Source of the DNA: Gemmatimonadales bacterium
GTDB taxonomy: Bacteria > Gemmatimonadota > Gemmatimonadetes > Gemmatimonadales > GWC2-71-9
Reading direction: 5' to 3'
Assembly: GCA_052389555.1 (NCBI GenBank)
Contig: JBQTHV010000108.1
Location: forward strand, 35-64,034
DNA length: 64,000 bases
The notes beneath the pieces were generated by a model. The model worked only from the letters and a program-made list of their open reading frames with translations. It was not told the origin of the DNA and made no database searches. Position numbers and translations under genes: made by a program. Shown here piece by piece: positions 11,200 through 61,320 of this stretch. The number at the start of each line of letters is the position of its first letter. Positions within the stretch are counted from its first letter, which is position 1.

Positions 11200-11257
11200 T
11201 GCCGAGTGCCAAGCGCCGAGCCACCAAGCGCCGAGTGTCGAGCCCCGAGTATCGAGT
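11200..11257. repeat. GCCGAG-type heptamer array (about 8 units), intergenic
   Basis: TGCCGAG TGCCAAG CGCCGAG ... TATCGAG read directly, upstream of nadA. Confidence 0.9.
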
Positions 11258-13188: not shown

Positions 13189-13203
13189 GGAAGGAGGCCC
13201 TCC

Positions 13204-13515
13204 ATGTTGCTGATCCGCGAAATCATGTACTGCAAGCCGGGCAAGGTGCGCCCCATGGTCGAGAAGTTCCTGGCCATGGACAAGCTTGGGCGGAAGGCCG
13301 GGATGCCGAAGATGCGGGTGATGACCGACTTCTGCGCCGAACGGTACTGGACCATCGTCGCAGAGATGGAAGTAGCAAGCGTGGACGAGTTCGAGCGGAT
13401 GATGCAGGGTACTGGCCAGGGCGAGGAAGACCTGAAGGAGATGGAGCGCCTGATGGCGGGCTACCACGACCTGGTGGACTACGGCCGTCGGGAGATCTAC
13501 AAGATCGAGGGCTGA
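13204..13515 (+). CDS. hypothetical small protein
   Basis: 103-aa ORF with coding-like composition, 15 nt after nadC. Confidence 0.6.
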   Translation: MLLIREIMYCKPGKVRPMVEKFLAMDKLGRKAGMPKMRVMTDFCAERYWTIVAEMEVASVDEFERMMQGTGQGEEDLKEMERLMAGYHDLVDYGRREIYKIEG

Positions 13516-13527
13516 CGGGGCGTCGGG

Positions 13528-15609
13528 CTAACGCCGCGCCCAGCTTACCGACAGCCCGACATGGGCGTGCCGGCCGGGTGCCGGCTCCAGCACCCGGCCG
13601 CCCACGCCGTTGATGTTCACCGAGCCCACCACTTTCCGGTCGAACACGTTGTTGAGGGCGCCGAACGGCTCGAGCGTGGCTTCGCCGAACCGGATCGTGC
13701 CGCTCAGCCGGACCGAGGTGATGCCCACTCCCCAACCCGCCACTGAGATGGCGTTGCGATCGTCTCCGAACATCCCTCCGGCGGTGACCTGGTCCACCTC
13801 TATCCCCACGGGACCTTGACGAACCCCGAGGACCGCGCGGAAGAAATGCCGGGGGACGCCGGCCAGCCGATTGCCATCGAGTGTATCGGTCGTGGCGCCG
13901 AGGGGGATCCGGTATTCCGTAAAGCGGTAGTCGGCGAACGAATAGGCCGCCCGCAAGCTCAGCCCTTCGAACGGCGCCAGGCCAGCGCCGGCTTCCATCC
14001 CGCTATTCCTAACCCGCCCGGCATTCTGGAAAAAGGCCCGGCCATCGACCTCGCGAGCCTGGATGATCGCGTCGCGGATCCAGTTCACGAAGCCGGCCAC
14101 CGAGTAATCGATCCAGCGGCCGATCCGGCCCCGTGCGCCGAGCTCGGCGGATACGGTGCGCTGGGGTCCCAAAGCGGTGTTGAATCCGGCCGTGGTGTTC
14201 TGCGTGTTTACGAGCTCGGTAGTCGTGGGAGACTCGAAACTCGTCGAAACGCTCGCATAGAGCGTAGCCGCCGGCGTCGCGGCGTAAGAAATCCCCGCGC
14301 TGCCGCTCGGGTTCTCCATGATGCGTTCGCCGCTGTTATCGATTCCATCCGAGAGCCACCGGTCTTGCACCCGAAAGGCCACCCGGTCATAGCGGGCCGC
14401 GCCCAGGAAGAGGAACCCCCGCCCGAGATCCCAGTGAAGCTGCGCGAAGGGCCCCAGCTCCGTCACGGTCTCCCGCTGATCGGCAAGCACCTCGCCGGTC
14501 GGTGCGCCGGCATTGCTCCGTTCGTTCCGGCGATCGTCTCGCATGCGTTGCGCATCGAGCCCCGCAGTGAGGCGGATGGATCCATCGCTCCTGAGCGGCA
14601 GGGAGCCGCTCAGCCGGACCCCGCCCACGACGCGATCGATTCGGTTATAGGTCCCGGATGCCGGCGTGACCGGCGGAGGGGGTGGTGTCGCCAATGGATT
14701 TGCGAGGTCACGGAGGAGACCGAACGCGGTGCCTTCGAGCTCGATCCCCCGGGCGTTTGCCCAGCGATAGCGGAGCGCGAGTTGCTGCTGGTCAACGTCC
14801 TTGTCTGCGCCGCGCAGGATGTTGTTCCCGGCCGCGCTGTCGCGCCGGGCCAGATACTCCGCCTCGGTGAGCGCGCCGGGATTCTCGGCCCGCGGCGCCT
14901 CCGCCCAGCCGAGGTGGACCGACAAGCTCGAGCGCGAATCCAGCTCCGCGGCAACCTTCGCCATGAACTGATAGGCGAGCGCTGCACTGTGCTGACGGAA
15001 TCCGTCGGTGCGGAAGCGGGAAAGCGATGCCATCCCTCCGAACCTGCCTTGCGCCGTCCCGATCGTTTGAGTCAGCTTGCTCGTGCCGAAGCTGCCCGCC
15101 AGCACCCGGGTGCGTGCCTGGAATGGCAGCGTGGGCGTCTCGGTGGAAAACGCAAGCACACCGCCCGCGGAGTTGCCGTAAACAGCACCTGCCGAACCGG
15201 TCAGGACCTCGACCCGATCGACCAGCGCCAGATCCAGGTTGCTGAGCTGGCTTTGGCCGTCAGGTAATGTCTGCGGGACTCCATCCAATAACACCTTGAC
15301 GCCCCGGAGGCCGAAGTTGGCGCGGCTCCCCGCACCCCGAAGGGAAACCCGCTGGTCGAGGGAGAAGTTGTAGCGATTGAGCACCACGACACCCGGCAAG
15401 CGGCTCAGCGACTCGTCCAGGCCCGCGGTAAGCTGAGCCCGCCGCACTTCTTCGGCACCCAGCACGCCAACTGCCAGGGGGAGTCGCGCTGTGGCCTCGG
15501 GGGCACGGGTGACCCGGACCTCGAGCGCCGGCAGCCTGGTCGTGTCGCGAGGCAGGGTATCCGGTTGCTGAGGCGATGCCGCCAGGATTGCAAGGATGAG
15601 TCTCGGCAT
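13528..15609 (-). CDS. TonB-dependent receptor
   Basis: Signal peptide MPRLILAILAAS. Plug region LPALEVRVTRA...LSRLPGVVVLNRYNFSLDQRVSLRGAGSRANFGLRGVKVLLDGVP, followed by a long beta-barrel-like body. ATG 15609 preferred over 15684. Confidence 0.85.
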   Translation of the reverse strand: MPRLILAILAASPQQPDTLPRDTTRLPALEVRVTRAPEATARLPLAVGVLGAEEVRRAQLTAGLDESLSRLPGVVVLNRYNFSLDQRVSLRGAGSRANFGLRGVKVLLDGVPQTLPDGQSQLSNLDLALVDRVEVLTGSAGAVYGNSAGGVLAFSTETPTLPFQARTRVLAGSFGTSKLTQTIGTAQGRFGGMASLSRFRTDGFRQHSAALAYQFMAKVAAELDSRSSLSVHLGWAEAPRAENPGALTEAEYLARRDSAAGNNILRGADKDVDQQQLALRYRWANARGIELEGTAFGLLRDLANPLATPPPPPVTPASGTYNRIDRVVGGVRLSGSLPLRSDGSIRLTAGLDAQRMRDDRRNERSNAGAPTGEVLADQRETVTELGPFAQLHWDLGRGFLFLGAARYDRVAFRVQDRWLSDGIDNSGERIMENPSGSAGISYAATPAATLYASVSTSFESPTTTELVNTQNTTAGFNTALGPQRTVSAELGARGRIGRWIDYSVAGFVNWIRDAIIQAREVDGRAFFQNAGRVRNSGMEAGAGLAPFEGLSLRAAYSFADYRFTEYRIPLGATTDTLDGNRLAGVPRHFFRAVLGVRQGPVGIEVDQVTAGGMFGDDRNAISVAGWGVGITSVRLSGTIRFGEATLEPFGALNNVFDRKVVGSVNINGVGGRVLEPAPGRHAHVGLSVSWARR

Positions 15610-15662
15610 GAGCGGAAAACATAGCGCGATGCGCAGGGAACAGCTTAGGTTCCGCGGTATCC

Positions 15663-16091
15663 ATGGTCGAGCCTCGATTGCCATTCCCCACGACTAGCCT
15701 CACGCCCGGCCCGGGACCGGGATGGGAGCGGCTTGCCCAGGGCCTGCGCGAGTCGTTTCCCGTCGGTGAGCTCGATCGAATTTGGGCCTTCCGGGTTATG
15801 CGACGTGGGGGGCAGGACTTCGGGACCGCTATCCTCTCGCGTATCGAAGGCGACCGGCGCCGTGTCTATACCGCGCGGTTCGTGCACACCGTCAAGGGGA
15901 AGAAGCGGGGCGAATTCAGCTGGGCGGTGAAAGAAGTCGGGAGCGGACCGCTGGAGGCGCTCGACGAGTTGCTGGCCCTGGTCCCCAAGCGTTCGGATGA
16001 AGAAGAGCCTCCCGTCCCCATTTCACTGGAGATCTGGTTTCCCCACTCCCCACTCCCTACTCCCCGATCCCCAGTCACCAATCCCGACTGA
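15663..16091 (+). CDS. hypothetical protein (C-terminus encoded by CCCCACT heptamers)
   Basis: 142-aa ORF divergent from the receptor gene. No recognisable domain. The last ~12 codons are the heptamer array. Confidence 0.4.
   Translation: MVEPRLPFPTTSLTPGPGPGWERLAQGLRESFPVGELDRIWAFRVMRRGGQDFGTAILSRIEGDRRRVYTARFVHTVKGKKRGEFSWAVKEVGSGPLEALDELLALVPKRSDEEEPPVPISLEIWFPHSPLPTPRSPVTNPD
16041..16075. repeat. tandem heptamer array (CCCCACT-like) x5
   Basis: CCCCACT CCCCACT CCCTACT CCCCGAT CCCCAGT at the 3' end of ORF 15663-16091. Confidence 0.95.
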
Positions 16092-19548: not shown

Positions 19549-20490
19549 ATGGACTCCCCTTCCTCGCGGCAGCCGTCCCCTCCGCTTCGAGTCACCGAAC
19601 GCCGCAATCCGCGCACCGCCAATATCGACATCGCGACTCCGCTCGAGATCGTCGATCTGATCGCGCGGGAGGATGCCGGCGTGTCCGCGGCAGTCGCGAG
19701 CGCGCGGCTCGAGATCGCCCGTGCCATGGAGCTGATCGAGGCGTCGTTCCGGACGGGCGGCCGGCTGATCTACGTCGGTGCCGGTACCAGCGGACGGCTC
19801 GGCGTGCTCGACGCGGCGGAGTGCCCCCCGACGTTCGGTACGACGCCGGAGATGGTGGTCGGCATCATTGCCGGCGGGCGCGAGGCCCTAACCCGCTCGG
19901 TCGAAGGCGCGGAGGACGATGCCGCGGCCGGTGCCGCGGTGATGGATGAGCACGGGGTGGGCTCGTCGGATACCCTCGTGGGCATCGCGACCAGCGGGAC
20001 GACCCCGTATGTCCGCGCCGCGCTGCTCCAGGCCAGGGCCCGCGGGGCCCGGACCGTGTTCCTAACCTGCGTGGAGCCTCCCGAGGGCATCCGGGACGCC
20101 TGCGACGTCACCATCGCGGTGCTCACGGGCCCGGAAGTGGTGACCGGTTCGACTCGCATGAAGGCGGGCACGGCCACGAAGCTCGTGCTCAACACCCTCA
20201 CCACCGGTGCCCTGGTGCGGCTCGGCAAGACCTACGGCAACCTGATGGTGGACCTGCAGGCCTGGAATCAGAAGCTGACCGATCGCGGTGAGCGGATCGT
20301 GATGGCCGTGACCTCCGTGGATCGCGACGCCGCACGTGCGGCCATCGCCGCGGCGAGCGGATGGGTGCGTACCGCGATCGTGATGGTTCGGCGGGGCTGC
20401 TCGCGCGAGGAGGCCGAAGCGCTGCTCCAGGCCAACGACAACCATCTCCGCCCAATTCTGGGAGAACCGCCGCCTATCGGTCCGGAATGA
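19549..20490 (+). CDS. murQ: N-acetylmuramic acid 6-phosphate etherase
   Basis: ERRNPRTANID, GAGTSGRLGVLDAAECPPTFG, VEGAEDD and GSTRMKAGTATK motifs. ATG 19549 avoids overlap with the divergent ggt. Confidence 0.9.
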   Translation: MDSPSSRQPSPPLRVTERRNPRTANIDIATPLEIVDLIAREDAGVSAAVASARLEIARAMELIEASFRTGGRLIYVGAGTSGRLGVLDAAECPPTFGTTPEMVVGIIAGGREALTRSVEGAEDDAAAGAAVMDEHGVGSSDTLVGIATSGTTPYVRAALLQARARGARTVFLTCVEPPEGIRDACDVTIAVLTGPEVVTGSTRMKAGTATKLVLNTLTTGALVRLGKTYGNLMVDLQAWNQKLTDRGERIVMAVTSVDRDAARAAIAAASGWVRTAIVMVRRGCSREEAEALLQANDNHLRPILGEPPPIGPE

Positions 20491-21656
20491 CCAGCCGTCC
20501 TGCCTTCCCGCCGTCCTGCATGACCAGCGGTCCTGCCGTCCCACCGTCCAGCCGTCCGGCGACCGGGATCGGTCTCATGTCCGGCACCTCCCTCGACGGT
20601 ATGGACGCCGCGCTGGTGCGGTTCACCGGACCCACCCATGCCGAGCTGGTTGGTTTTGCCCACCGCCCCTATCACCCGGAGGAGCGGCGGGAGATCGAGG
20701 AGGCCATCGAGCGGCAGGTCGGCGGTGCGCGGCGCCTCGCGCATCTCCACGCGCGACTCGGCGAGTGGGCGGTGGAGGCCGTCGAGGAGGTCCTAACCCG
20801 CTCACGCTTCACCGCGCAGGGCCTCGACTTCATTGCCTTTCATGGCCAGACCGTGTGGCACGAGCCGCCGCTGGTCACGTTGCAGCTTGGCGAACCGGCC
20901 TGGCTGGCCGAACGGTTCGGCGTGCGGGTGGTGTCCGGGTTCCGGGGCCGGGACCTCGCGGCCGGAGGCGAAGGGGCCCCGCTCGTCCCCATGGCCGATG
21001 TGCTCCTGTTCGGCGCCGAGCAGGGTCCCCGGATTCTGCTCAACCTGGGCGGCATGGCAAACCTGACGTACGTGCTGCGCCGAGCGGTAGAGGACGGCGC
21101 GTTTGCCTTCGACACCGGGCCAGGGATGGCGGTGATCGATGGGGTCGCGCGGCTGGTTGACCCGTCGCTTCCATTCGATCTCGACGGGGCGCTCGCTCGC
21201 TCGGGTCATCCGGACGAAGCCGTGTTGGGGGAGTTGCTGGCCGACCCCTTCTTCGCTCAAGAGCCGCCCAAGAGCACCGGGCGGGAGCGGTTCGGCACCG
21301 CTTACGCGCAACGCCTTTATGGGCGTCTCGGCAGCAATGCGGTGGTGACAGCGGTGGAGCTGACTGCCCGGTCGATTGCCCACGCGCTCGAAGCGTGGAC
21401 TCCGGCCGGAGTGGAAGTCGTCGCGTCTGGCGGTGGCTGCCGGCATCCCATCCTCTGGAGCGCGCTCGCCGATCGGCTGTCGCGCCAGGGCCGGTCCCTT
21501 CGGCCGTTCGACCAGCTCTTCTTTCCCGGGGAAGCGAAGGAAGCAGTGGCGTTCGCCCTGCTTGGCTATCTCACCATTCACGGACAGCCCGGGAATCTCC
21601 CCGCCGCTACCGGCGCCCGAGGGCCTCGCGTGTTAGGAGTGATCACTCCTCCGTGA
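20487..21656 (+). CDS. anmK: anhydro-N-acetylmuramic acid kinase
   Basis: GLMSGTSLDGMDAALV signature. ATG 20487 overlaps the murQ stop (ATGA). The first ~25 codons are repeat-derived, and ATG 20576 is an alternative start. Confidence 0.88.
   Translation: MTSRPAFPPSCMTSGPAVPPSSRPATGIGLMSGTSLDGMDAALVRFTGPTHAELVGFAHRPYHPEERREIEEAIERQVGGARRLAHLHARLGEWAVEAVEEVLTRSRFTAQGLDFIAFHGQTVWHEPPLVTLQLGEPAWLAERFGVRVVSGFRGRDLAAGGEGAPLVPMADVLLFGAEQGPRILLNLGGMANLTYVLRRAVEDGAFAFDTGPGMAVIDGVARLVDPSLPFDLDGALARSGHPDEAVLGELLADPFFAQEPPKSTGRERFGTAYAQRLYGRLGSNAVVTAVELTARSIAHALEAWTPAGVEVVASGGGCRHPILWSALADRLSRQGRSLRPFDQLFFPGEAKEAVAFALLGYLTIHGQPGNLPAATGARGPRVLGVITPP
20490..20560. repeat. CCGTCC-type octamer-like array in anmK 5' region
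   Basis: CCAGCCGTCCTGCC...CCGTCCTGC...GGTCCTGCCGTCCCACCGTCCAGCCGTCC read directly. Confidence 0.8.
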
Positions 21657-23068
21657 CGCCCGGTCGCCTGGTTTTTCCGGCGCTCCGCTGGCGCGAGGAG
21701 ACCGGCTTCGCCCATGAGGAAGACGCGATGGAGCGGGCGCTCGGCTTCGGCACCGGGGGATTCATCCTGTTCGGCGGGACCCGGGAGACCGTGGCCGAGC
21801 TCACCGCCCGATTGCGCCGAGCGGCCGGCCGCCCGCTGCTCTTTGCCGCCGATCTGGAGCGCGGGCCGGGCCAGCAGGTGCGCGGCCTGGACGAGTTGCC
21901 GCCACCCATGGCGCTCGCGTCGCTCGGCGATGCCGCCGTGCTGCGCGGGGCCGGCGTGCTAACGGGCCTCGAGGCGCTCTCGGTGGGCATCAATTGGGTG
22001 CTTGCCCCCGTCGCCGATCTCGACATCGAGCCCGAGAATCCGATCGTGCAAACCCGTGCCTTTGGCGACGACCCGGCGGGAACCGCTGCTGCGGTGGCGG
22101 CGTGGATCGTGGGCTGCGAAGCGGCCGGCGCTCTGGCGTGCGGGAAGCACTTTCCCGGCCATGGCCGGACCTGCCGCGATTCGCATCTCGAGCTGCCGGT
22201 CGTCACCGCCGATGCTACCACCCTGCGCGGCACCGATTTGGAGCCGTTTCGGGCCGCCATTGGGGCGGGGGTGAGCACAATGATGACCGCCCACGTGGCC
22301 TATCCGGCGCTGGATCCGAGCGGCGCGCCCGCGACCTTCTCGGCGCCCATCATCGAGATCCTGCGCCGCGAGCTCGGGTTCGCGGGAATCGTGGCCTCGG
22401 ATGCCCTGATCATGGCAGGGGCAACCGGTCGTCCCGCGGAGCGCGCCGCGCTCGATGCGGTACGGGCTGGGGTGGATGTTCTGCTTTATCCCGATGACCC
22501 GGTAACCATTGCGGGGGCCCTGGATCGCGAATCAGGCCGAGACCCGACGGTTCGAGCCCGGGTGGATGCCGCGCTCGAACGGTACCAGACGGCGCTGGAG
22601 GCCGTAGCGGGTGCGGAACTGGTCGAGCCGGTGCCACCCGCCGGTTCCGCCCAGGCGCTGGGCGACTGGCTGCTCACCGCCCCGCTGCTTCGGGGCGAGT
22701 TCCCCGCCTTGCGAGCGCCGCTCGAGCTAGTGATCGTGGACGACGATCTGGCCGGGCCGGGGCCGGTCTCCCCTAACACGCAGGTCGCCGAGGCGCTCGC
22801 CGCGCGGGGGGTTCCGCTCGGACCCGGCGGCAGCCGGATCGTGCTGGCCTTCACCGAGCCGCGCGGCTACAAAGGATGGGCGGGCTTCGGCCCGGCCAGC
22901 CGGGAGGCCCTAACCCGCGCCGCTCCGGAGGCCGCCCTGGTCGTGCTCTTTGCCCATCCCCGCCACGCGGCGGCCATCCCGGGCCGGGCGCCGATCCTCT
23001 TGGCCTGGCATCGCCAGCGGCTCATGCAGGAGGCGGTGGCCCGGCGGGTCAGCGCCGCTCTCGGGTGA
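21653..23068 (+). CDS. nagZ: beta-N-acetylhexosaminidase (GH3)
   Basis: GKHFPGHGRT and GH3 N-terminal domain pattern. GTG 21653 overlaps the anmK stop. Confidence 0.88.
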   Translation: MTPGRLVFPALRWREETGFAHEEDAMERALGFGTGGFILFGGTRETVAELTARLRRAAGRPLLFAADLERGPGQQVRGLDELPPPMALASLGDAAVLRGAGVLTGLEALSVGINWVLAPVADLDIEPENPIVQTRAFGDDPAGTAAAVAAWIVGCEAAGALACGKHFPGHGRTCRDSHLELPVVTADATTLRGTDLEPFRAAIGAGVSTMMTAHVAYPALDPSGAPATFSAPIIEILRRELGFAGIVASDALIMAGATGRPAERAALDAVRAGVDVLLYPDDPVTIAGALDRESGRDPTVRARVDAALERYQTALEAVAGAELVEPVPPAGSAQALGDWLLTAPLLRGEFPALRAPLELVIVDDDLAGPGPVSPNTQVAEALAARGVPLGPGGSRIVLAFTEPRGYKGWAGFGPASREALTRAAPEAALVVLFAHPRHAAAIPGRAPILLAWHRQRLMQEAVARRVSAALG

Positions 23069-24702
23069 CCGCGCTCGACTGGCTGGTCGTGGCCCTGTAT
23101 CTCGGGGTCACGCTCACGGTCGGCCTGCTCCTCGCCCGGCGAGGTGCGAAGAGCCTCGCCGAGTTCTTCGTCGGCGCGCGCTCGATTCCGTGGTGGCTGG
23201 CCGCCACCTCCATGGCGGCGACGACTTTCAACGTGGACACGCCGCTGTACGTGGCGGGTCGGGTGGCCCAGGCCGGCGTGGCCGGGAACTGGGAATGGTG
23301 GAGCTTCGCCTTCGCCCATGTGCTGCTCGCGGTCTTGCTGGCGAAGCTCTGGCGGCGGGCCGGCATCCTGACCGACATGGAGCTCACCCAGCTCCGGTAC
23401 GGGGGGCGGCCGGCCGCGGTGCTGCGCTCGGTCCGGGCCTTTCTCTTCGCAGTGCCGATCAACTGCATCGGGATCGGCTACGGGATGCTCGCGATGCGAA
23501 AGGTCATCGTCGGGCTCGACCTGCTGGGCGGACTTCCCGACCTGCCGGGCGATCCTCGCCTCTGGGCGCTGCTCCCGATCGTGGTGATCGTGCTGGCGTA
23601 CACGGCGGCGGCGGGTCTCTGGGGAGTCGTGGCCACCGATTTCGTCCAGTACCTGCTGGCCCTCGCCGGGGCGTTCACCGTCATGGGCTTTGCGCTCCAC
23701 GAGCTCGGCGGGTTAGGGTCGATGCTGGACCGCCTTCGAGCGACGGGGCAGGGCAACCGGCTGGCGCTGGTTCCGCTGGGGTCGGAGGCCCTCGTGCCAC
23801 TCTCGACGTTCCTCGGATATATCGGGATCCAGTGGTGGGCGTTCCGGAACAGCGACGGCGGCGGGATGTTCGTCCAGCGGCTCTCCGCTACGGCCAACGA
23901 GCGGGAAGCGCGCAAGGCGGCCCATGCATTCAACGTGCTCAATTACGTCGTGCGCACCTGGCCCTGGGTCCTGGTGGGCCTCGCCGCACTGGTGGTCTTG
24001 CCGGGTCTGGCCGATCCGGAGCTTGCCTATCCGCTGCTCATGGTGCGCTATCTCCCGGCGGGTTTGCTGGGACTGGTGTTCGCGAGCCTCCTCGCCGCAT
24101 TCATGTCCACGGTCTCGACTCAGGTGAACTGGGGCGCGAGTTACCTCGTCCATGACCTCTACGCGCGCTGGCGCCCGACCGGCGACGAGCGCAAGCTGCT
24201 TCGGGTCGCGCGTTGGGCGACGATCGGCATCACCCTGCTGGCTGCGATCGTGTCGTTCTTCATGGAAAGTGTGGGCACGGTCTTCCGGTTCCTGATACTG
24301 ATTGGGAACGGGCCGGGGCTCGTCCTGCTGCTGCGCTGGTTCTGGTGGCGGGTGAACGCCTGGGCCGAGATCTCGGCGATGCTCGCGGGATTGGGAATCG
24401 CGCTGCTCACCTACCTTCCGCCTCTGGCGCATCTGACCTTCGGGGCTCGCCTGATGCTCACCGGGTTCGGCTCGCTGGCGGTCTGGCTGCCGGTGATGCT
24501 GCTTACCCGGCCCGAGGCGCCCGCGGTCCTGGATCGGTTCTACGCGCGAGTGAGGCCCGGAGGCGCCTGGGGGCCGGTGCGCCAGCGGGTTAGGCTCGCT
24601 CCTCTCGACGACCTGGCCGCTGATGCCCGGCGCTGGCTCCTCTGGATGGTCGTGATTCTGGGCGGCATGCTGGGGATCGGGTGGATGCTCTTGGCTCAGT
24701 GA
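23065..24702 (+). CDS. sodium:solute symporter family transporter
   Basis: FFVGARSIPWWLAATSMAATTFNVDTP, about 13 TM segments. GTG 23065 overlaps the nagZ stop. Confidence 0.85.
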   Translation: MTALDWLVVALYLGVTLTVGLLLARRGAKSLAEFFVGARSIPWWLAATSMAATTFNVDTPLYVAGRVAQAGVAGNWEWWSFAFAHVLLAVLLAKLWRRAGILTDMELTQLRYGGRPAAVLRSVRAFLFAVPINCIGIGYGMLAMRKVIVGLDLLGGLPDLPGDPRLWALLPIVVIVLAYTAAAGLWGVVATDFVQYLLALAGAFTVMGFALHELGGLGSMLDRLRATGQGNRLALVPLGSEALVPLSTFLGYIGIQWWAFRNSDGGGMFVQRLSATANEREARKAAHAFNVLNYVVRTWPWVLVGLAALVVLPGLADPELAYPLLMVRYLPAGLLGLVFASLLAAFMSTVSTQVNWGASYLVHDLYARWRPTGDERKLLRVARWATIGITLLAAIVSFFMESVGTVFRFLILIGNGPGLVLLLRWFWWRVNAWAEISAMLAGLGIALLTYLPPLAHLTFGARLMLTGFGSLAVWLPVMLLTRPEAPAVLDRFYARVRPGGAWGPVRQRVRLAPLDDLAADARRWLLWMVVILGGMLGIGWMLLAQ

Positions 24703-24766
24703 GACGGGAGGACGGTAGGGCGGTAAGACGGTAAGACGGTAAGACGGTAAGACGGTAGGACGGTAG
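24703..24766. repeat. tandem octamer array (GACGGTAA/G) x8, left arm of inverted pair
   Basis: Units read directly, starting the base after the transporter TGA (24700-24702). Confidence 0.95.
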
Positions 24767-24784
24767 GATGAGGGTAGCGTTCGG

Positions 24785-25144
24785 CTACCCCTTTCTCGCC
24801 GCCGCTTCGTAGAGGCGCCAGAGCTGCTTGCCGGCTTCGTCTCGGTTGCGCTCGATCGTTTCCCACTCACCCCTAGCAAGAAACCCAAGATCGCGAGCTA
24901 CCAGGAGGACATAGCTCAACTCCGCAGTCGACCCAATCGCCATATCGAGGAATCGACGGAACTCCCGGGGTCCTCGCTTGGCGGCTCCTTCAGCGATGTT
25001 TGAGGCGATCGAAAAGGCTGCCCGCCGGGCTTGAGTGGTCAGCCCGTAGATCTCATGTCTAGGCCAAGTCCCGGTGGCCTGGTAGACTAGCAGAACGAGT
25101 TGGTGGGACGCCTTCCATGCTCGGAGCCGCTCATAGGGTGCCAT
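24785..25144 (-). CDS. four-helix-bundle protein (23S rRNA intervening-sequence protein / Avd-like family)
   Basis: MAPYERLRAWKASHQLVLLVYQAT...EIYGLTTQARRAAFSIASNIAEGAAKRGPREFRRFLDMAIGSTAELSYVLLVARDLGFL matches the family signature (QLRRAa.SI..NIAEG..r....e..rFl.iA.GS..El...l). Confidence 0.85.
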   Translation of the reverse strand: MAPYERLRAWKASHQLVLLVYQATGTWPRHEIYGLTTQARRAAFSIASNIAEGAAKRGPREFRRFLDMAIGSTAELSYVLLVARDLGFLARGEWETIERNRDEAGKQLWRLYEAAARKG

Positions 25145-25276
25145 GGTCCTAGCCTAGGAAGCCCGGGGGAATAACAACAACCATTTCTACCCTGGATAGG
25201 ATCTTTCCTACGCCAATCGACGATCTGGCCCAAACGCCCCCCAACCGCCCCAGCGTCTCATCCGGCGGGGCACTTT

Positions 25277-25337
25277 CCCTCTTACCCTCTTACCCTCTTA
25301 CCGTCTTACCGTCTTACCGTCTTACCGTCCTACCGCC
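25277..25337. repeat. tandem octamer array (CCCTCTTA x3, CCGTCTTA x3, CCGTCCTA), right arm
   Basis: Reverse complement of the left arm. About 33 nt are near-perfectly complementary (CTTACCGTCTTACCGTCTTACCGTCCTACCGCC versus the reverse complement of 24719-24750). Contains the phosphatase stop codon (25330-25332). Confidence 0.95.
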
Positions 25338-26403
25338 TGAGCACCAAATACACCAGGAGCAACACCGCGAGTACCACGACCGTGACCACTGCAATCACCG
25401 CCGGCGAGCCGCTTCGCCGGGCTGGGGCGGCAGGCGGTCCGGACGTTTCTTCGGATTGGTGGATCAGTGCCTCTGGCTTACCGCTCGGCGGCTCGGGGTT
25501 CGATGGCTCGGCGTTCGGTGGCTCGTCGCCTCGGCGTGGAAGATCGGACTGCGGGTTGTCCGGGGCAGACGCTGCCGCGGTGCGCAGCCCATCCCCGTCG
25601 AATCGGACCGCGACCACCGTGATATTGTCGGGGCCCCCGCGCTCATTGGCAAGCGCTACCAGCCGGTCGCACACCTGGTCGAGATCGGGAACCTCCTCGA
25701 CCAGCGTGGCGATCTCCTCGCGCTTGACCTGGCCGGAAAGGCCGTCGCTGCAAATCACCAGCGTATCGCCGCGCTGGAGCTCCGTGCGGGTTAGGTCCAC
25801 CCGGATCCGGGGGTCGGGCCCCAGCGCCTGGAGGATGATGTTGCGACGCTCGCTCTGGGCCGCCTCTTCCTCAGTCAGCTCGCCCGCATCGACCAGCCGC
25901 TGCATCAGCGACTGGTCCTTGGTGAGCTGGGTCGCGACGCCATTCCGGATCAAATAGCCCCGACTATCCCCCACCTGGGCCAGATAAAGCGCCCCATCGA
26001 GCACTCCCGCGACCGTCGCGGTCGTACCCATGCCCCGTACGTCGGGATGCTCCTGGGCGTACGCATGCAAGCGATCGTTGGCCTGTTCGACCGCTTCGCG
26101 CAGGCGCTCGGTGAACAGCTCGGGGCTCCGCGCGCCATCGCGACTCCAGTGCTCGGTGAGATAGGTGACGATGAACTGGGCGGCCATCGAGCTGGCCAGC
26201 TCGCCGGCGGCCGCGCCACCCATCCCGTCGGCCACCAGGAACACGCTTCCCCGGTCCCCGACCCGGTGGGGTCCCCCATTGGCGAGGTCCTTCCCGCCGC
26301 TCAGGTCGGCGATCCGGAAGACGTCTTCGTTGTGGTCGCGGGTTTGGCCCGGATCGCTTCGGGCCCGGACCGTGACGGAGACCGGCGGCGGGCTGGTAGT
26401 CAT
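25330..26403 (-). CDS. PP2C-family Ser/Thr phosphatase with C-terminal TM anchor
   Basis: SDPGQTRDHNEDVF, LVADGMGG, LICSDGL and GGPDNITVV motifs. C-terminal AVIAVVTVVVLAVLLLVYLVL. ATG 26403 overlaps the kinase stop (ATGA). Confidence 0.88.
   Translation of the reverse strand: MTTSPPPVSVTVRARSDPGQTRDHNEDVFRIADLSGGKDLANGGPHRVGDRGSVFLVADGMGGAAAGELASSMAAQFIVTYLTEHWSRDGARSPELFTERLREAVEQANDRLHAYAQEHPDVRGMGTTATVAGVLDGALYLAQVGDSRGYLIRNGVATQLTKDQSLMQRLVDAGELTEEEAAQSERRNIILQALGPDPRIRVDLTRTELQRGDTLVICSDGLSGQVKREEIATLVEEVPDLDQVCDRLVALANERGGPDNITVVAVRFDGDGLRTAAASAPDNPQSDLPRRGDEPPNAEPSNPEPPSGKPEALIHQSEETSGPPAAPARRSGSPAVIAVVTVVVLAVLLLVYLVLRR
25484..25535. repeat. GCTCGG-type (reverse GCCGAG) array in phosphatase 3' region
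   Basis: CTCGGCG GCTCGGG GTTCGAT GGCTCGG CGTTCGG TGGCTCG. Encodes the PEPSNAEP-like tail before the TM anchor. Confidence 0.8.
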
Positions 26404-27458
26404 CGGGTGTCGGGTCCGGCGAGCCGTCGGCTGGAAGACCCACTGAGCCGCTCCCACAGCCCGCCGAGCCAACGTCCAGCCGAGCGTCGAGCGCCGAGCG
26501 CCGAGCCACCGTCCATAACCCGCACCACGGCGAAAGCAAACTCGCGAACGCTGGCAAACCGTTCACCAGGCTCTCGTGCCAGGGCCCGGCTCATGACCGC
26601 CTGCAAGCTGGCGGGAAATCCACCGTCCGGCCGGGCCTGGTGCAGGGGACGCGGCGGTTCGGTGAGTCGTTTGGAGAGCGCGCCGCGCAGGGAACCGCCC
26701 TCGAAGGGGAGTAGGCCGGTGATGGCCTCGTAGAACACGAGGGCCAGGCTGTACTGGTCCGATCGCGCATCCACGCGGGCCCCGGAGAGTTGTTCCGGAC
26801 TCATGTATTCCGGGGTCCCCACGATGAATCCCGTCCGGGTGACCCCGGATTCCCCTTCGCCCGCGATCGCCTTCGCAATGCCGAAGTCAACCAGCTTGAC
26901 CCTTTCTGCCGATTCACCGCCGGCGGAAACCACCATAATATTGTCCGGCTTGAGATCGCGATGGACAATCCCCAGGTCATGCGCGGCTTGCAGTCCCGCA
27001 GCGCACTGGCTGAGAAGGGCGGCCGCTCGGGGAACCGGCAGCCGACCAAATTCCGTCAGCAGCGCCCTCAGGGGCTGCCCCTCAACGTACTCCATGGCCA
27101 GGAAAACCAGTCCGTCGGCGGTCAATCCGAAGTCGTACACCGCGCAGACGTTGGGGTGAGAGATCCGGCTCGCGTTGGTCGCCTCCCGGTTGAAGCGCTT
27201 GATGGCTTCGGGATCCTGAGTGAGGTCGCGGCTCAGGATCTTGAGCGCGGAGAGTCTCCCCATCAGGACGTGCCGGGTGAGATAGACCTCTCCCATGCCG
27301 CCTCCGCCGAGCCGACGCTCAATAGCATAGCGCTCGGCGACAACGCGTCCCAGGAGCTCGTCCGGGTCCGACCCCACCGGCCGAAGGGGGGTCCGATCCT
27401 GGGCGCAGAACGCAGCATCTTCGCCGTACTCGGCGCTACAGACGGGGCACACTCGCAC
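26400..27458 (-). CDS. Ser/Thr protein kinase with N-terminal zinc ribbon, no TM or sensor domain
   Basis: CPVCSAEYGEDAAFCAQD, GGGGMGEVY...ALKIL, HRDLKPDN, DFG and GTPEYMSPE motifs. GTG 27458 follows AAGGA at a suitable spacing. The track ORF (to 28109) would overlap the divergent amidase gene. Confidence 0.88.
   Translation of the reverse strand: MRVCPVCSAEYGEDAAFCAQDRTPLRPVGSDPDELLGRVVAERYAIERRLGGGGMGEVYLTRHVLMGRLSALKILSRDLTQDPEAIKRFNREATNASRISHPNVCAVYDFGLTADGLVFLAMEYVEGQPLRALLTEFGRLPVPRAAALLSQCAAGLQAAHDLGIVHRDLKPDNIMVVSAGGESAERVKLVDFGIAKAIAGEGESGVTRTGFIVGTPEYMSPEQLSGARVDARSDQYSLALVFYEAITGLLPFEGGSLRGALSKRLTEPPRPLHQARPDGGFPASLQAVMSRALAREPGERFASVREFAFAVVRVMDGGSALGARRSAGRWLGGLWERLSGSSSRRLAGPDTR
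26461..26512. repeat. GCCGAG-type array in kinase 3' region
   Basis: CCGCCGAGCCAACGTCCAGCCGAGCGTCGAGCGCCGAGCGCCGAGCC read directly. Confidence 0.85.
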
Positions 27459-27537: not shown

Positions 27538-29535
27538 ATGCAACGGAGCGCGTGGATCGCCGCGGTTCTCCTCGCCGGGTGCGCCCGTCCGCCCGGGCCG
27601 GAAGTCATTGCCCCACAACCCGAGCGTCCCGCCCTCGACATCCCTGGGGAAACCACGGCTCCAGGCCGGCTACCCCCCGTGCCGGAGTCCCGGGGCCCGC
27701 TCCGCATTCGGGTGGTGTATCCGGATTCCCTCGCCCGGGTGGATATCCGGGATTCCAGTTTCATCTTCGGCTCGGTGGGCGATGGTACCGCCATCCTCAC
27801 CATCAACGGCCAGTCGGTGCCAGTCGCGGCGAACGGGGCGTGGCTTGCCTGGCTGCCTTTTGCCGGTGACAGTGTGATCAGCTTTGCGATCGCGGCCCGG
27901 ACCGCAACCGACTCGGCAACACTCTTATATCGGGTGCGCCGCTCTTCCCGGTTCACTCCGGCGCCAGGGCAAGCGCTCTGGATCGACACGACCAGCTTCT
28001 CGCCGCGAGGACGGGTATGGTGGCCTCGGGATGAATTCCTACCGTTGTCGGTGCGCGCCAGCGAGGACGCGAATCTACGGCTCGCGCTCCCGAGCGGCAC
28101 CGTGATCACTCTGTCGGCAGACTCGGTGGCCGAGGATGTCGCTGAGGGTATTCGGGCCTTCGACCGCGAGGTCGCGAATCTCGCGCGTCCGGTCCGGGCG
28201 GACCGCTATCGTACCATGCTGCGCGGCATAACGCTCGGCGACGCGGGGCCGCTCTTCGATACCATCCTGCCGTCCGGCCGCCCTGCCGTCCTGCCACCAA
28301 CGGGGCCGCCGAGCCGCCGAGCCGTCCAGCCGTCCAGCCGTCCAGCCCTCGAGCTTCTTGCCATCAGAGGACGTGACACCGTCCGTGCCGTCTGGCCCCT
28401 GACCCTCGCGCTTCTCGACTCCACTCCGATCGCGGTGACGCTCAACGACGATCGCGAACGCCGCGGCGGCACCGATCGGCTCACGATGGGAAGAACCACG
28501 CCGGGCGGCACCTATACCTGGTTCTTTCCAACCGGGACTCGCGGCCGCGTGTCAGGGCGGATCAACGGTGACCTCCGCCTCGCTCTCTCCCGGCGGAGCG
28601 ACGCCTGGGTCTCCGCTGCCGAAGCTCTGCCGAGCCCCGGACCAACGACCGCGGTGGTTGGTTCAATCACCCTGACGCCAAACCCGGACCGGGTGATCGC
28701 GCGGATACCGGTTGGGGTACGCCTGCCGTTTCAGGTCCACGAGGAGGAACGCGCGCTCACGATCGTGTTGTATGGGGCGCGCTCCGACGTGAATTGGCTT
28801 CGGTACGGGCCGGCTGATCCACTGGTGCGATTGGCTATCACCCGGCAAACGAGTGCCGACGAGTTGGAGCTTCGTTTCGACCTCAGCACCCCGGTCTGGG
28901 GATACCGGACTGAGTGGGACGGCACCGACCTGCTGTTTGCGATCCGAAGGCCGCCGCGCCTGGACCGGAGCAATGTGCTGGCCGGCATGACGGTCGTGGT
29001 CGATCCGGGGCACCCGCCAATCGGTGCCACCGGGCCGACCGGGCTTACCGAGGCCGAGGCCAATCTCGCGATCGCGCAGGTCCTGGTCGGGCTGTTGGCG
29101 CGGGAGGGGGCTCACCCGATCCTAACCCGCACCGACATGCGCCCGCTCGACCTCTGGCCGCGGGTCCGCCTGGCCGACAGCCTCAACGCCCAGCTCCTGG
29201 TCTCCATCCACAACAATGCGCTGCCCGACGGCATCAATCCGTTCACCAACAACGGGCCGAGTGTGTTCTACCACCACCCTCGCGCGTTACCGCTGGCCCG
29301 GGCCATTCAGTCCCGATTCGTCGGGCGCTTCGGGCTGCGCGATCTCGGCGTGGGACGGGCGGATCTCGCGCTCGCGCGTCCCACCTGGATGCCAGCCGTG
29401 CTGACCGAAGGTCTGTTCCTGATGATTCCGGAGCAGGAGGCTGCCCTGGCCCAGTCCGAGGGGCAACGCCTTTATGCGCTTGCCGTGCTCGAGGGAATTC
29501 GCCAGTTCCTCGAGCAGGTGCGGGATGCCCGATGA
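27538..29535 (+). CDS. N-acetylmuramoyl-L-alanine amidase (Amidase_3) lipoprotein
   Basis: MQRSAWIAAVLLAGC lipobox. C-terminal VVDPGHPPIGATGPTGLTEAEANL...SIHNNA...GLFLMIPEQE. Confidence 0.85.
   Translation: MQRSAWIAAVLLAGCARPPGPEVIAPQPERPALDIPGETTAPGRLPPVPESRGPLRIRVVYPDSLARVDIRDSSFIFGSVGDGTAILTINGQSVPVAANGAWLAWLPFAGDSVISFAIAARTATDSATLLYRVRRSSRFTPAPGQALWIDTTSFSPRGRVWWPRDEFLPLSVRASEDANLRLALPSGTVITLSADSVAEDVAEGIRAFDREVANLARPVRADRYRTMLRGITLGDAGPLFDTILPSGRPAVLPPTGPPSRRAVQPSSRPALELLAIRGRDTVRAVWPLTLALLDSTPIAVTLNDDRERRGGTDRLTMGRTTPGGTYTWFFPTGTRGRVSGRINGDLRLALSRRSDAWVSAAEALPSPGPTTAVVGSITLTPNPDRVIARIPVGVRLPFQVHEEERALTIVLYGARSDVNWLRYGPADPLVRLAITRQTSADELELRFDLSTPVWGYRTEWDGTDLLFAIRRPPRLDRSNVLAGMTVVVDPGHPPIGATGPTGLTEAEANLAIAQVLVGLLAREGAHPILTRTDMRPLDLWPRVRLADSLNAQLLVSIHNNALPDGINPFTNNGPSVFYHHPRALPLARAIQSRFVGRFGLRDLGVGRADLALARPTWMPAVLTEGLFLMIPEQEAALAQSEGQRLYALAVLEGIRQFLEQVRDAR
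28268..28347. repeat. composite CCGTCC / CCGCCGAG / CCGTCCAG x3 array inside amidase gene
   Basis: Read directly. Translated as RPAVLPPTGPPSRRAVQPSSRPA. Confidence 0.9.
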
Positions 29536-31796
29536 CCCAGAGGACGGCAGGACGGCAGGACAGCAGGACGGCAGGACCGCTTGGCGGCTCGGGGGCTCGG
29601 CACTCGGTGTTGCTGGTTACCCGGTTCGCCCGGTTCACCCGGTTCGCCCCGTTCGTCCTGTTCGCAAACCTCAGCGCCCAGCCGCCGGAAGAACGAAAGG
29701 CCATCGAGGCGTTTCGCGACACGCTCCTTACGGTGAGTGATACGGTTGTGCTGCAAGAGCGGGAAGCCCTCCTGCTCCGTTCATCTCAGCGGCTCCGGAA
29801 CGACCCCGCCTTTCACCTCCTCATCGGTCACCTTGCGCTTCGTCGAGGCGAACTCGGCGGCACGAGCCACCTCGACGAGGCGGCGGCCGAGTTTCGCTGG
29901 GCCGCCGCGCTTGCCCCGCGATGGCCTTACGCCTGGCTCGGCCTCGGCACCGCCGAATTCACGCTGGGTAGCCGACTTTCCGAGCCGGGAGGTGCGACTG
30001 CTCGCGAAGCGCGCTCGCGAGACGCCTACTCGCGAGCGGGGCAGGCGTTTGCGCGAGCCGTGCTTCTCGAACCTGGCTTCGCGCCCCGCTTGGAAGCGCT
30101 CGCCCGCCGCGCGGTGCGCGAGAAATCTCCCGAACGCGCCGCCGTCGTTCGGAGTGCTTTCGAACGCGCGGTCAGCACCACCCGGACCCCGGTTCCCCGG
30201 CTCCTGCTTGCCCTGGGTCGGGTCCAGCGGGAGCTGGACGATTCCAGCGCTTTGACAACGCTCGCGCGGTATCTCTCGATTCAGGATAATCCCGCGGTGG
30301 GGCTCATCGAGTTGGGGCGGGCCCTGCTCCTGCGCGGTGATCCAAGCGGTGCGGCGAGATACTTGGCCGGCGCCGGCAGCGACGATCCGCAGGCCACCGC
30401 GGAGTATCGGGCCGATTTGGCTCCGATCGCGACTGACTGGGAGCTTGCCGAGTTCGATCGCCGGCGCGGATGGATGCGAGCGGAGCTGGTGCGCCGGTTC
30501 TGGACTGCACGGGACCGACTCGAGCTGCGCCGCGACGGGGAGCGCCTTGCCGAGCACCTTCGGCGTCTGCGCGTGGCCCAGCGGGAATTCCTTGTCGTCA
30601 TGGCAGACAGCACCACGCGGCTCGACGATCGCGGCCGGGTATTCGTGCGCCACGGCAAGCCGGACGAGCGGGCAAGCTTCACCTGGGTCGGCATCCCTCC
30701 CAATGAATCGTGGCGATATCGCCGGGGCGGGGAAGGTCCCGACCTCGTCCTGCATTTCGTGTCGCGACAAGCCCAGAATGATTACCGGTTGGTCGAGAGC
30801 GTGCTGGACGTGCCAGTAGTCCAAAACCTGCCGACCGAAGCTCTGTTTCGGTCCCGCTGGACTCTCGCGCCGGTCTACCGGCAGCCGGGAGCCCAACGGA
30901 GCCGGCTCGCTCCGGATATCCTAACCCGCGAGCGCGCGCTGGGCAGGTACGGCATCCGGGTCGCCACCGGATCCGACCGGTATCCGTTGCGGTTTGCCCG
31001 GGAGCTCGAGGCGTGGGGAGCCATGCTGGTGGCGGGTGGGAGTGGGGCGCAGCCCGCGATTCAGGTGGTGTTCGCGATCCCCGACTCTTTGCTCGGAACG
31101 CCGGGTGCGGAACCGCCGAGCCGCCGAGCCGCCGAGTCGTCTGTTCGCGTCCGCTTCATCGCGCTCGACCTCGCCGGAAACGTGGTGGCTTCGGCGGACT
31201 CGACGGTCCGGCCCGAAGCGGTGGAATATCCGGGAGAAGGTCGCGCCCTCGGGGGCCGCATCGCGGTCCCGGTGCGGCCCGGCCGCCTGGTTGCCCATGC
31301 CGCGATTCAGTATCGCGAGGGCGGGTCAGCCTTCGGAATCGATACGCTTTCAGTGCCTTCACCGGGCGCCGGGGAGCTTGCCCTGGGCGATCTGTTGCTC
31401 GGCTCCCCGGAGCAGGGCCTGGACGTTCCTCTGGGAGACGGGAGCAGGTTCGCACTCGCCCCTGCCGCGCTGATTCGCCAATCTCAAGACCTGCACATCG
31501 CCACCGAGATCTTCGGTCTTCTGCCTGGCGGTCAGGCGAACCTCCGGATCTATGTTGCCCCACGAGATCGCCTCCAGCCGGTCGAACCGGAGGTGCTCAA
31601 GTGGCGGCCGGTTCCGGGGAACCGGGGAGCGGCCGCGATCAATCGCGGTGCCAGTTCGGGTCCCATCGTTTCGTGGAGAACGGTCTTGCCATCACGGGAG
31701 CTCAGTCCGGGGTTCTGGGCACTGGCGGTGGTGGTGCGGGATGGTGCGGGACGGGAAGTCCGGCGGGAGGCCCGGCTGGTGGTAGTGGAGCCCTGA
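29532..31796 (+). CDS. GWxTD-like domain protein with TPR-like N-terminal region
   Basis: FWTARDRLELRRDGERLAEHLRRLRVAQREF...DDRGRVFVRHGKPDE...ESWRYRRG...LVLHFV..DYRLVES resembles the GWxTD domain. ATG 29532 overlaps the amidase stop. The N-terminal 50 aa are repeat-encoded. Confidence 0.6.
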   Translation: MTQRTAGRQDSRTAGPLGGSGARHSVLLVTRFARFTRFAPFVLFANLSAQPPEERKAIEAFRDTLLTVSDTVVLQEREALLLRSSQRLRNDPAFHLLIGHLALRRGELGGTSHLDEAAAEFRWAAALAPRWPYAWLGLGTAEFTLGSRLSEPGGATAREARSRDAYSRAGQAFARAVLLEPGFAPRLEALARRAVREKSPERAAVVRSAFERAVSTTRTPVPRLLLALGRVQRELDDSSALTTLARYLSIQDNPAVGLIELGRALLLRGDPSGAARYLAGAGSDDPQATAEYRADLAPIATDWELAEFDRRRGWMRAELVRRFWTARDRLELRRDGERLAEHLRRLRVAQREFLVVMADSTTRLDDRGRVFVRHGKPDERASFTWVGIPPNESWRYRRGGEGPDLVLHFVSRQAQNDYRLVESVLDVPVVQNLPTEALFRSRWTLAPVYRQPGAQRSRLAPDILTRERALGRYGIRVATGSDRYPLRFARELEAWGAMLVAGGSGAQPAIQVVFAIPDSLLGTPGAEPPSRRAAESSVRVRFIALDLAGNVVASADSTVRPEAVEYPGEGRALGGRIAVPVRPGRLVAHAAIQYREGGSAFGIDTLSVPSPGAGELALGDLLLGSPEQGLDVPLGDGSRFALAPAALIRQSQDLHIATEIFGLLPGGQANLRIYVAPRDRLQPVEPEVLKWRPVPGNRGAAAINRGASSGPIVSWRTVLPSRELSPGFWALAVVVRDGAGREVRREARLVVVEP
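29542..29665. repeat. composite array: GGACGGCA x4, CTCGG-type units, then nonamer CCGGTTCGC x5
   Basis: Octamers 29542-29577, nonamers 29621-29665. All lie inside the first 45 codons of CDS 29532. Confidence 0.92.
31113..31136. repeat. tandem octamer array (CCGCCGAG) x3 inside GWxTD-like gene
   Basis: Read directly. Translated as PPSRRAAE. Confidence 0.95.
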
Positions 31797-34510: not shown

Positions 34511-34633
34511 AGGAGGTAGTAAGTAGGAGGTAGTAAGAAGGGACAAACCTGACCGAGGCATGGTCGTTGCAGCGGGCGGTGCTGTTCCCTACTCACTACC
34601 TCCTGCTTACTATCTCCTTCTGTCCTTTCCTAC
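34511..34633. repeat. hairpin element, arms built from GGAGGTAGTAAGTA-type 14-mers (family copy 1)
   Basis: Left arm 34511-34547 starts 3 nt after the nrdJ stop. Right arm 34585-34633. About 26 of 30 complementary positions by eye. Confidence 0.9.
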
Positions 34634-49172: not shown

Positions 49173-49176
49173 TCTT

Positions 49177-61276: not shown

Positions 61277-61320
61277 GGCCGAGTGCCGAGCGGTCGAGTG
61301 CTGAGCAGCCGAGCGCCGAG
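61277..61320. repeat. GCCGAG-type heptamer array, intergenic
   Basis: GGCCGAG TGCCGAG CGGTCGAG TGCTGAG CAGCCGAG CGCCGAG, 28 nt after the tlpA-like stop. Confidence 0.9.

Follow-up and report, generated by a model that had tools for sequence, protein, structure and literature searches.

A 64,000-nt stretch of contig JBQTHV010000108.1 from a Gemmatimonadales bacterium (hereafter the window) contains, between convergent genes for an SSF transporter and a PP2C phosphatase, a small gene for a four-helix-bundle protein that is enclosed by two complementary tandem-repeat arrays (Table 1). The analysis presented here indicates that this element is probably a non-ribosomal, invertible form of the intervening sequence (IVS) cassettes that carry an open reading frame (ORF), and one complete copy of a widespread unit. 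Such a unit would begin and end with complementary arrays of 7-8-nt repeats, which enclose a short leader and a four-helix-bundle gene of the TIGR02436/PF05635 family. ORF-containing IVSs are known from the 23S rRNA of Leptospira, Coxiella burnetii and Haemophilus (S23p ORF), in which they replace the loop of helix 25 or helix 45, and rRNA IVSs, which may also lie in 16S rRNA genes, have long been regarded as selfish or possibly mobile elements.

The left array begins at position 24703, the base directly after the TGA of the transporter gene, and the PP2C stop codon TAG (CTA at 25330-25332) lies inside the outermost unit of the right array, together with the last codons of that gene. These boundaries agree with those proposed in an initial reading of the DNA letters (hereafter the sequence-only reading). 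Tandem Repeats Finder (TRF) returned a left array at 24702-24765 (period 8, 8.0 copies, 89% matches, unit AGACGGTA) and a right array at 25280-25335 (period 8, 7.0 copies, 95% matches, unit TCTTACCG). When aligned as inverted repeats, the arms extend over 62 nt with 87% complementarity (24702-24763/25277-25338) or over 56 nt with 91% complementarity (24713-24768/25280-25335), the inter-arm distance being 511-513 nt across both alignments, and the 56-nt alignment contains the perfect complementary core of 33 nt that had been noticed in the mirrored arrays. The sole ORF between the arms is the 119-aa four-helix-bundle ORF and the remainder is a 132-nt spacer, in line with the loop content described beforehand. 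In the window cassette the arm-to-ATG gap is 132 nt and the stop-to-arm gap is 16 nt. Folding of the 661-nt RNA predicted a closing stem of ∼ 60 bp (-307.9 kcal/mol, z=-9.2). Apart from the arrays, 24500-25600 contains no repeats other than short chance pairs, and a scan of the same interval for sigma-70 promoters and intrinsic terminators gave no match. No Rfam family, rRNA included, was matched in a permissive search of 24000-26000 or at gathering thresholds on the whole window, the tRNA scan was likewise without a match, and no second four-helix-bundle paralogue is present within the 64 kb of the window.

The 119-aa protein matches PF05635 (E=3.3e-29) and TIGR02436 (97 bits; cut-off 24), and aligns with the crystallised Xanthomonas protein XCC0516 (PDB 2GSC, E=3.3e-23). 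PF05635 has been described as resembling Avd (PMC10053308); for the window protein, the match to an Avd-type profile was weak (phage Avd family phrog_3206, E=3e-6). An exact-sequence look-up of the protein returned no record, the phage collection contained no homologue, and no anti-phage defence model of PADLOC was matched. The family is very large, with ∼ 31,000 clusters (50% identity) matching the profile at E<=0.001 and ∼ 14,000 at E<=1e-10. Purifying selection on the homologues is strong, with a ratio of non-synonymous to synonymous substitution (dN/dS) of 0.03-0.12 at dS values of 0.5 to more than 3, that is, near saturation; the arms have nonetheless been kept.

The cassette also differs from its surroundings in composition. 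The whole of it, arms and gene, is low in G+C (∼ 60%), the G+C content at third codon positions of the four-helix-bundle gene is 0.67 against ∼ 0.81 in host genes, and in 60 of 60 Gemmatimonadota loci the gene has a lower G+C content than its flanks. The spacer has a G+C content of 59% compared with 67.5% for the window, which places it among the lowest 4% of 132-nt windows. The earlier remark that this spacer is poor in G+C was therefore correct, but the claim that nothing nearby is poorer was not, since the intergenic region 49173-49297 has a G+C content of only 54%.

Homologues of the four-helix-bundle gene were collected by scanning one genome per species, which gave 80 loci, mostly from Gemmatimonadales metagenome-assembled genomes (MAGs). 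At each locus the 450-nt upstream flank was aligned to the reverse complement of the downstream flank, and windows from the same loci, displaced by 2-3 kb, served as controls (n=228). An inverted-repeat score at or above the threshold of 36 was observed in 86% of the 73 testable loci and in 0/228 controls. The median score was 48 against 20 in the controls, in which the maximum was 32 (Mann-Whitney p=4e-34). The bracketing by inverted arrays that the sequence-only reading had proposed as a check on paralogues is thus found at homologous loci well beyond the window.

The arm period is 8 in Gemmatimonadota and 7 in Acidobacteriota, Planctomycetota and others, with some units of 9-20 nt. The units are specific to each locus (CGGGAAGT, GGCGGTAG, GGACAGAC, GGAATGAT, CAGTTAT and others), and those of Gemmatimonadota share a core G-R-C-G-G plus three free positions, with an information content of 6.81 bits against 5.16 +/- 0.20 for shuffled units. 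The Gemmatimonadota 5′ arm is purine-rich, which by symmetry is true on both strands. Across loci the median leader, measured from arm to ATG, is ∼ 70 nt and the gap from stop codon to arm is ∼ 10 nt. The cassette favours the space between convergent genes: in 38 of 43 loci the neighbour downstream is convergent, and the arms lie directly against stop codons. Where the neighbours are in tandem, the gene is antisense to them in eight cases and sense in two. Moreover, pairs of loci whose proteins are at least 75% identical have arm units in common despite the lack of any detected flank similarity (L022 and L043, for example), and arms and gene are therefore argued to move or duplicate together. 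The idea that the units might supply stop codons in all three frames was dropped, as many units have no stop triplet.

The leader of the window cassette holds a two-block motif, GCG-N7-GRT (GGGTAGAAATGGTT at 25179-25192), 34 nt before the ATG, and roughly half of the Gemmatimonadota cassettes have the same motif 33-36 nt ahead of their ATG. A second, similar copy lies ∼ 21 nt further upstream in the window (∼ 25200-25215) and in loci L169 and L170. The motif is moderately specific, with 96 position-weight-matrix hits in ∼ 1.07 million positions (both strands of ∼ 535 kb of other DNA). Judged from its sequence and placement, it may be a cassette promoter or operator. As a standard promoter it gave no convincing match; in some of the copies its A-rich middle is similar to TAGAAT.

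The cassette is an insertion, as it is present at the window junction and missing from the same junction in a relative. For this comparison, relatives were taken from metagenome contigs encoding relatives of the transporter, and closer ones were found via the four-helix-bundle protein. In the syntenic locus L081, in which the SSF and PP2C proteins are 83% and 76% identical to those of the window, the two stop codons are 44 nt apart with neither arrays nor gene between them, and this is the empty site that the sequence-only reading had hoped to see in a relative. The SSF and PP2C proteins of L081 end at the same residue position as those of the window, and the 627-nt cassette therefore takes up precisely the space from one stop codon to the other. 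At L112, L116 and L118 the junction is 6-37 nt. Conversely, L169 (PP2C identity 93%) and L170/L171 (SSF 89%, PP2C 91%) have the cassette beside PP2C. A gene-less array hairpin occupies the junction in L137, and gene-less hairpins with GTGATGR or GTGAGAA units are found directly past the transporter gene in L095, L107, L109 and L111. With the homologues bracketed, the L081 junction empty and the interior compositionally atypical, the earlier suggestion of an inserted cassette has been upheld.

The end of the window PP2C gene, AGG CGG TAG (protein ...LRR*; 25330-25337), reads as the array unit GGCGGTAG. In cassette-free L081 the PP2C protein ends ...LRD* with TGA (3172-3180). From these sequences, it seems that the host PP2C gene had its end overwritten or supplied by the array.

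The comparison of L170 with the window revealed that the cassette also inverts. The flanks of the two loci align on the same strand with 79-84% identity, whereas the interior (window 24713-25324) aligns on the minus strand with 72% identity. Among the syntenic pairs from the 80 genome loci, orientation was opposite in 22-24 of 67-72 pairs; these represent six or more independent groups, and their breakpoints fall in the arms. Gene identity was 67.2% in same-orientation pairs and 64.6% in inverted pairs, at flank identities of 75.5% and 75.4%; this similarity of gene identity in both orientation classes is indicative of flips of orthologous cassettes and not of fresh insertions. Orientation thus differs in about one-third of syntenic pairs, and it follows that recombination takes place between the two arms as DNA. 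Frequent inversion shows that the arms are active as DNA, which the sequence-only reading did not anticipate. That reading had also stressed the placement of the element downstream of a kinase-phosphatase operon, and this is not essential because the close relative L170 has the interior inverted. As regards the features by which invertons are recognised, both orientations are found among relatives and no invertase lies nearby.

Table 1. Parts of the cassette at the transporter/phosphatase junction and its flanking genes, in window coordinates.
Feature	Coordinates	Strand	Description
Flanking SSF transporter	22876..24702	plus	PF00474, sodium:solute symporter family; TGA stop is the left insertion edge
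Left arm	24703..24768		∼ 8 tandem octamers GACGGTAA and variants; 3′ arm of the gene
Small hairpin	24772..24790	minus	GGGTAGC/GCTACCC, 5-nt loop; overlaps the four-helix-bundle stop codon; seen as a local helix on folding
Four-helix-bundle gene	24785..25144	minus	Intact, 119 aa; PF05635/TIGR02436; S23p/XCC0516-like, distantly Avd-like
Leader/spacer inside stem	25145..25276	minus	132 nt; holds the two-block motif
Right arm	25277..25337		∼ 7-8 tandem octamers TTACCGTC and variants; 5′ arm of the gene; complementary to the left arm
Flanking PP2C phosphatase	25330..26472	minus	Downstream of a Ser/Thr kinase gene; stop is the right insertion edge

The small hairpin listed in Table 1 may be a 3′-end structure belonging to the four-helix-bundle gene, as its position suggests.

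The same build recurs in other phyla and within rRNA itself. On cyanobacterial plasmids, genes annotated as 'four helix bundle / S23 ribosomal' are bracketed by heptamer arrays, which lie directly at the start and stop codons and touch the neighbouring genes (L163, Pseudanabaena; L164, Picosynechococcus; L162/L165, Trichormus and Nostoc). Several of these plasmid sites are internal to operons, namely between cas6 and cas4, between cas10/cmr2 and cmr3, in conjugative-transfer clusters, and between type I secretion genes; the cassettes within cas operons may explain the reported association of the family with CRISPR. In X. campestris and X. sacchari (L172/L174, ∼ 1923-2433), an XCC0516-type gene is situated between accB and accC with inverted GGGAATN heptamer arrays on both sides, which end 0-6 nt from the host genes. 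Xanthomonas GGGAATC heptamer repeats have been described by Rehm et al. as mostly convergent pairs located just past ORFs (PMC4692102), and their supplement records an array that starts 6 nt after accB and overlaps the annotated XCC0516 start.

The link to rRNA is provided by L167, plasmid AZO_p2 of Azospirillum lipoferum 4B, in which record positions 13192-15882 contain a 23S rRNA gene (RF02541, 2082 bits); the stretch is without annotation in the incomplete gene table of the plasmid collection, which includes no RNA genes. This rRNA carries a helix-45-type IVS encoding a homologous four-helix-bundle ORF, with 36-nt arms of inverted purine-rich GAGGACG/GATGACA heptamers and with the ORF start inside the 5′ arm. 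Similarly, the Coxiella IVS has a 28-bp terminal stem with tandem GACAGAT heptamers whose copy number varies between strains, and RNase III cleaves it at the first repeat (PMC4990558). The IVS-like architecture that had been proposed for the window element is therefore borne out by the Azospirillum rRNA copy and by the heptamer stem of Coxiella.

The window element shares with the rRNA IVSs a PF05635/TIGR02436 ORF in the loop of a long stem, and a stem built of tandem heptamers or octamers in variable copy number. It differs in lying outside rRNA, between the convergent SSF and PP2C genes, in its 8-nt unit and ∼ 60-nt arms, and in the 132-nt leader with a conserved motif inside the stem; in addition, ORFs of the window type are under purifying selection, whereas the Coxiella ORF is decaying. 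To our knowledge, no rRNA IVS has been described with its interior inverted between relatives.

The arrays are not exclusive to the four-helix-bundle gene. TRF detected dozens of 7-9-nt tandem arrays in the window, and gene-less hairpins are common there, with inverted pairs at 16815-16846/16900-16931, 34511-34543/34586-34618, 49177-49221/49265-49299, 58596-58622/58661-58701 and 60631-60673/60706-60757. These five have 7-, 8- or 14-nt units and loops of ∼ 38-55 nt, begin a few bases past a stop codon, and fit the published convergent heptamer pairs of Xanthomonas. The arrays around the four-helix-bundle gene are consequently one instance of a genome-wide class, and their special trait is the gene in the loop.

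Two of the gene-less hairpins, 34511-34618 and 49177-49299, have a common 14-nt unit (AGGAGGTAGTRAGN) with a perfect Shine-Dalgarno-like AGGAGG, and identical first loop bases (GGGACAAA) followed by a different remainder. They resemble dispersed copies of one family, one located after a ribonucleotide reductase gene and the other after a Wzz-like gene. Unpaired arrays with no obvious inverted partner nearby were seen at 9169-9235, 11201-11256, 26479-26506, 31113-31136 and 61278-61322, and at 29620-29665 and 60750-60791, with units that comprise GCCGAGC/GCCGAGT heptamers, CCGCCGAG octamers and CCGGTTCG nonamers. Arrays at 28262-28350, inside the ORF 27538-29535, are complementary to an array past its stop codon (29527-29596), 1200 nt apart and with the usual polarity reversed, the pyrimidine-rich array coming first. 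That ORF ends in an N-acetylmuramoyl-L-alanine amidase domain and may be two genes or may contain an array-encoded low-complexity linker. In L040, a Gemmatimonadaceae MAG locus, the unit of the cassette arms (GGACAGAC/GGGCAGAC) fills several spacers of a type II secretion/pilus operon (1288-2182, 3821-4488).

Among previously known repeats, the Xanthomonas GGGAATC, cyanobacterial short tandemly repeated repetitive (STRR; GGGGAYT), and Beggiatoaceae/cyanobacterial TAACTGA heptamers resemble the window arrays in being intergenic, very close to the upstream stop codon, often arranged as convergent pairs and able to form stem-loops. The window units are of 8 nt and not 7, and the window pair encloses a gene. 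The correspondence extends to sequence elsewhere in the family, as CAGTTAT, the arm unit seen in Acidobacteriota and Planctomycetota, is the TAACTGA repeat in reverse complement and the GGGAATN arms of the Xanthomonas cassette are of the Xanthomonas heptamer-repeat type. In the published heptamer-repeat papers the repeats are treated as stand-alone quadruplex or regulatory elements, and searches of text and supplement gave no mention of a four-helix-bundle gene. The cassette is also reminiscent of MITEs (miniature inverted-repeat transposable elements) and other elements with terminal inverted repeats (TIRs), and of repetitive extragenic palindromes (REPs) and bacterial interspersed mosaic elements (BIMEs), in its inverted termini, its many gene-less and few gene-carrying copies, its location near gene 3′ ends and its presence/absence polymorphism. 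Its termini, however, are tandem arrays that vary by locus, unlike the conserved recognition sequence of MITEs and TIR elements, and the window copy has neither a transposase nor a target-site duplication, its cargo being a small, non-enzymatic protein. ORF-containing IVSs and convergent heptamer repeats are thus already known, each described separately. No literature was found that links four-helix-bundle genes outside rRNA to flanking arrays or reports their inversion, in a search that covered subscription journals thinly, so that a prior description is possible.

Taken together, these comparisons suggest how a non-ribosomal, invertible IVS cassette might operate. Any transcript spanning both arms, from either flanking gene, would form a ∼ 60-bp duplex, and by analogy with the rRNA-borne copies we infer that RNase III would cut it, a duplex of this length being a natural substrate. 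Cleavage would free the cassette RNA and leave the host transcripts with a base-paired 3′ end. Insertions in rRNA helices, operons and convergent junctions would then be tolerated, because release by RNase III would make them harmless. For the Gemmatimonadota cassettes, expression of the gene from its own conserved motif inside the stem is also probable. Complementarity of the arms would be upheld by arm-arm recombination and gene conversion, by selection on the stem, or by both; given that the arms recombine with each other, gene conversion is an alternative to RNA-stem selection for their complementarity.

Several observations weigh against this scheme. Since the leader motif lies inside the stem, a transcript initiated there would hold one arm only. 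Mismatches between the arms were G:U (G:T) in 134 cases and A:C in 114, so that no constraint at the RNA level is singled out, and recombination between the arms might alone suffice for their complementarity; frequent inversion would blur such a strand-specific wobble signal and could account for its absence. Comparison with L081 gave no sign of a target-site duplication at the junction, and Pfam scans of 13 neighbouring ORFs revealed no transposase, integrase, reverse transcriptase or invertase. The gene-less hairpins at the transporter gene in L137, L095, L107, L109 and L111 are compatible with a two-step origin, in which the hairpin came before the gene. Finally, in L040 an inverted pair of the same unit encloses a ∼ 90-aa pseudopilin gene and not a four-helix-bundle gene.

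The main rival explanation, which is judged unlikely, is that the arms are host hairpins serving as 3′ ends, terminators or stabilisers, and that the four-helix-bundle gene inserts into their pre-existing loops. It would account for the 5-6 gene-less window hairpins that begin 0-5 nt past a stop codon, for those downstream of the transporter orthologue just mentioned, and for the 70-75 convergent pairs in Xanthomonas, whose mean distance from the ORF upstream is 28 nt (PMC4692102). It is consistent also with the bimodal loop lengths of array hairpins in homologous loci (∼ 20-110 nt or 400-600 nt), with arm units drawn from a limited common vocabulary (core GRCGG), and with the residence of rRNA IVSs in hairpin loops. 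However, the syntenic L081 has neither arms nor gene, close paralogues without detected flank similarity have a common arm unit, and the copy in rRNA has introduced heptamer arms of its own into helix 45. Same-unit arrays also cluster around the cassettes in L040 and L046, which suggests outward spread from the cassette. A role of the arms at the DNA level only is somewhat unlikely; here the cassette would be an invertible segment, complementarity would be a by-product of recombination or conversion with no role for an RNA stem, and inversion would be a switch or neutral. The breakpoints in the arms and the orientation differences, the missing wobble signal, the apparent possession by the gene of its own leader motif, and its antisense placement in tandem contexts are all as this explanation would have it. 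Against it, the stem is a demonstrated RNase III site in rRNA copies (PMC4990558), and in the cyanobacterial and Xanthomonas operons the arrays abut start and stop codons, which leaves no room for a promoter and means that the stem must be transcribed. Moreover, there is no invertase gene nearby, and since the arms are symmetric a flip changes nothing outside the cassette, which makes a switch role hard to see.

Three further explanations concern the protein or the repeat units. The arrays could be periodic binding sites of the pentameric four-helix-bundle protein, for autoregulation, RNA protection or as an aid to copying or moving, with arm pairing secondary. The related Avd binds nucleic acid and a reverse transcriptase. 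The fixed octamer core and the strong purifying selection on the protein would fit such binding, as would the closest solved homologue, XCC0516, whose crystal structure is cited in a Coxiella paper as a homopentameric ring (PMC4990558). Such a role is nevertheless quite improbable on present sequence evidence, as the units vary widely between phyla (GGGAATC, CAGGAGT, AAAAGCT, GGGAAAA) and the conserved core may simply reflect common descent. That the G-rich arrays are G-quadruplex elements is very improbable. Repeats of the same class can form quadruplexes in Xanthomonas and Nostoc, for which this was proposed (PMC4692102), and the Gemmatimonadota 5′ arm is G-rich on both strands, but GACGGTAA has only GG runs, 6 nt apart, many arm families, CAGTTAT, AAAAGCT and GGAGATA among them, cannot form quadruplexes although their architecture is the same, and the arrays invariably have a complementary partner, as would be expected of a duplex. 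It is extremely improbable, lastly, that the gene is a remnant or the accessory gene (Avd) of a diversity-generating retroelement. The weak phrog_3206 match and the common four-helix-bundle fold family speak for this, whereas the protein falls closest to TIGR02436 and XCC0516, a different subfamily, and has no homologue in the phage collection. Its neighbours are housekeeping genes with no reverse transcriptase among them, and the arrays are the only repeats in 24500-25600, with no template/variable repeat pair; an Avd identity is thereby effectively refuted at the window locus. We also know of no Avd gene bracketed by arrays.

An IVS-type cassette that inserts with its own arms and inverts between them is therefore the explanation preferred here. 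A further-reaching version of it, which must be considered doubtful, would make the four-helix-bundle gene the autonomous core of a hairpin family that spans phyla, with the STRR, GGGAATC and TAACTGA repeats and the window hairpins as gene-less derivatives. The pentameric protein would recognise the periodic repeat core and, acting in trans, would create, maintain, invert or spread the arrays as transposon-like ends without a conventional transposase.

With regard to the surroundings of the cassette, the cluster 20361-24702 plus 27538-29535 resembles one for peptidoglycan recycling, with an anhydro-MurNAc kinase (AnmK), a NagZ-like family-3 glycosidase, the SSF transporter and an amidase. The Ser/Thr kinase/PP2C pair lies within this cluster, and the wider neighbours, which include ribonucleotide reductase, are housekeeping genes.

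Overall, the four-helix-bundle proteins form a very large family that includes a crystallised member and for which a function is known only in retroelements. If this family normally resides in the loop of a long inverted array, then three literatures describe one kind of element: those on rRNA IVSs, on the heptamer repeats of cyanobacteria, Xanthomonas and sulfur bacteria, and on stray four-helix-bundle genes in cas, conjugation and accBC operons. Tractable systems are at hand in Xanthomonas campestris, with its XCC0516-type gene between accB and accC, and in the plasmid copies of Nostoc and Trichormus. If true, this would explain how the gene can reside harmlessly inside essential transcripts, and it would add a common class of invertible segments that genome annotation has ignored.

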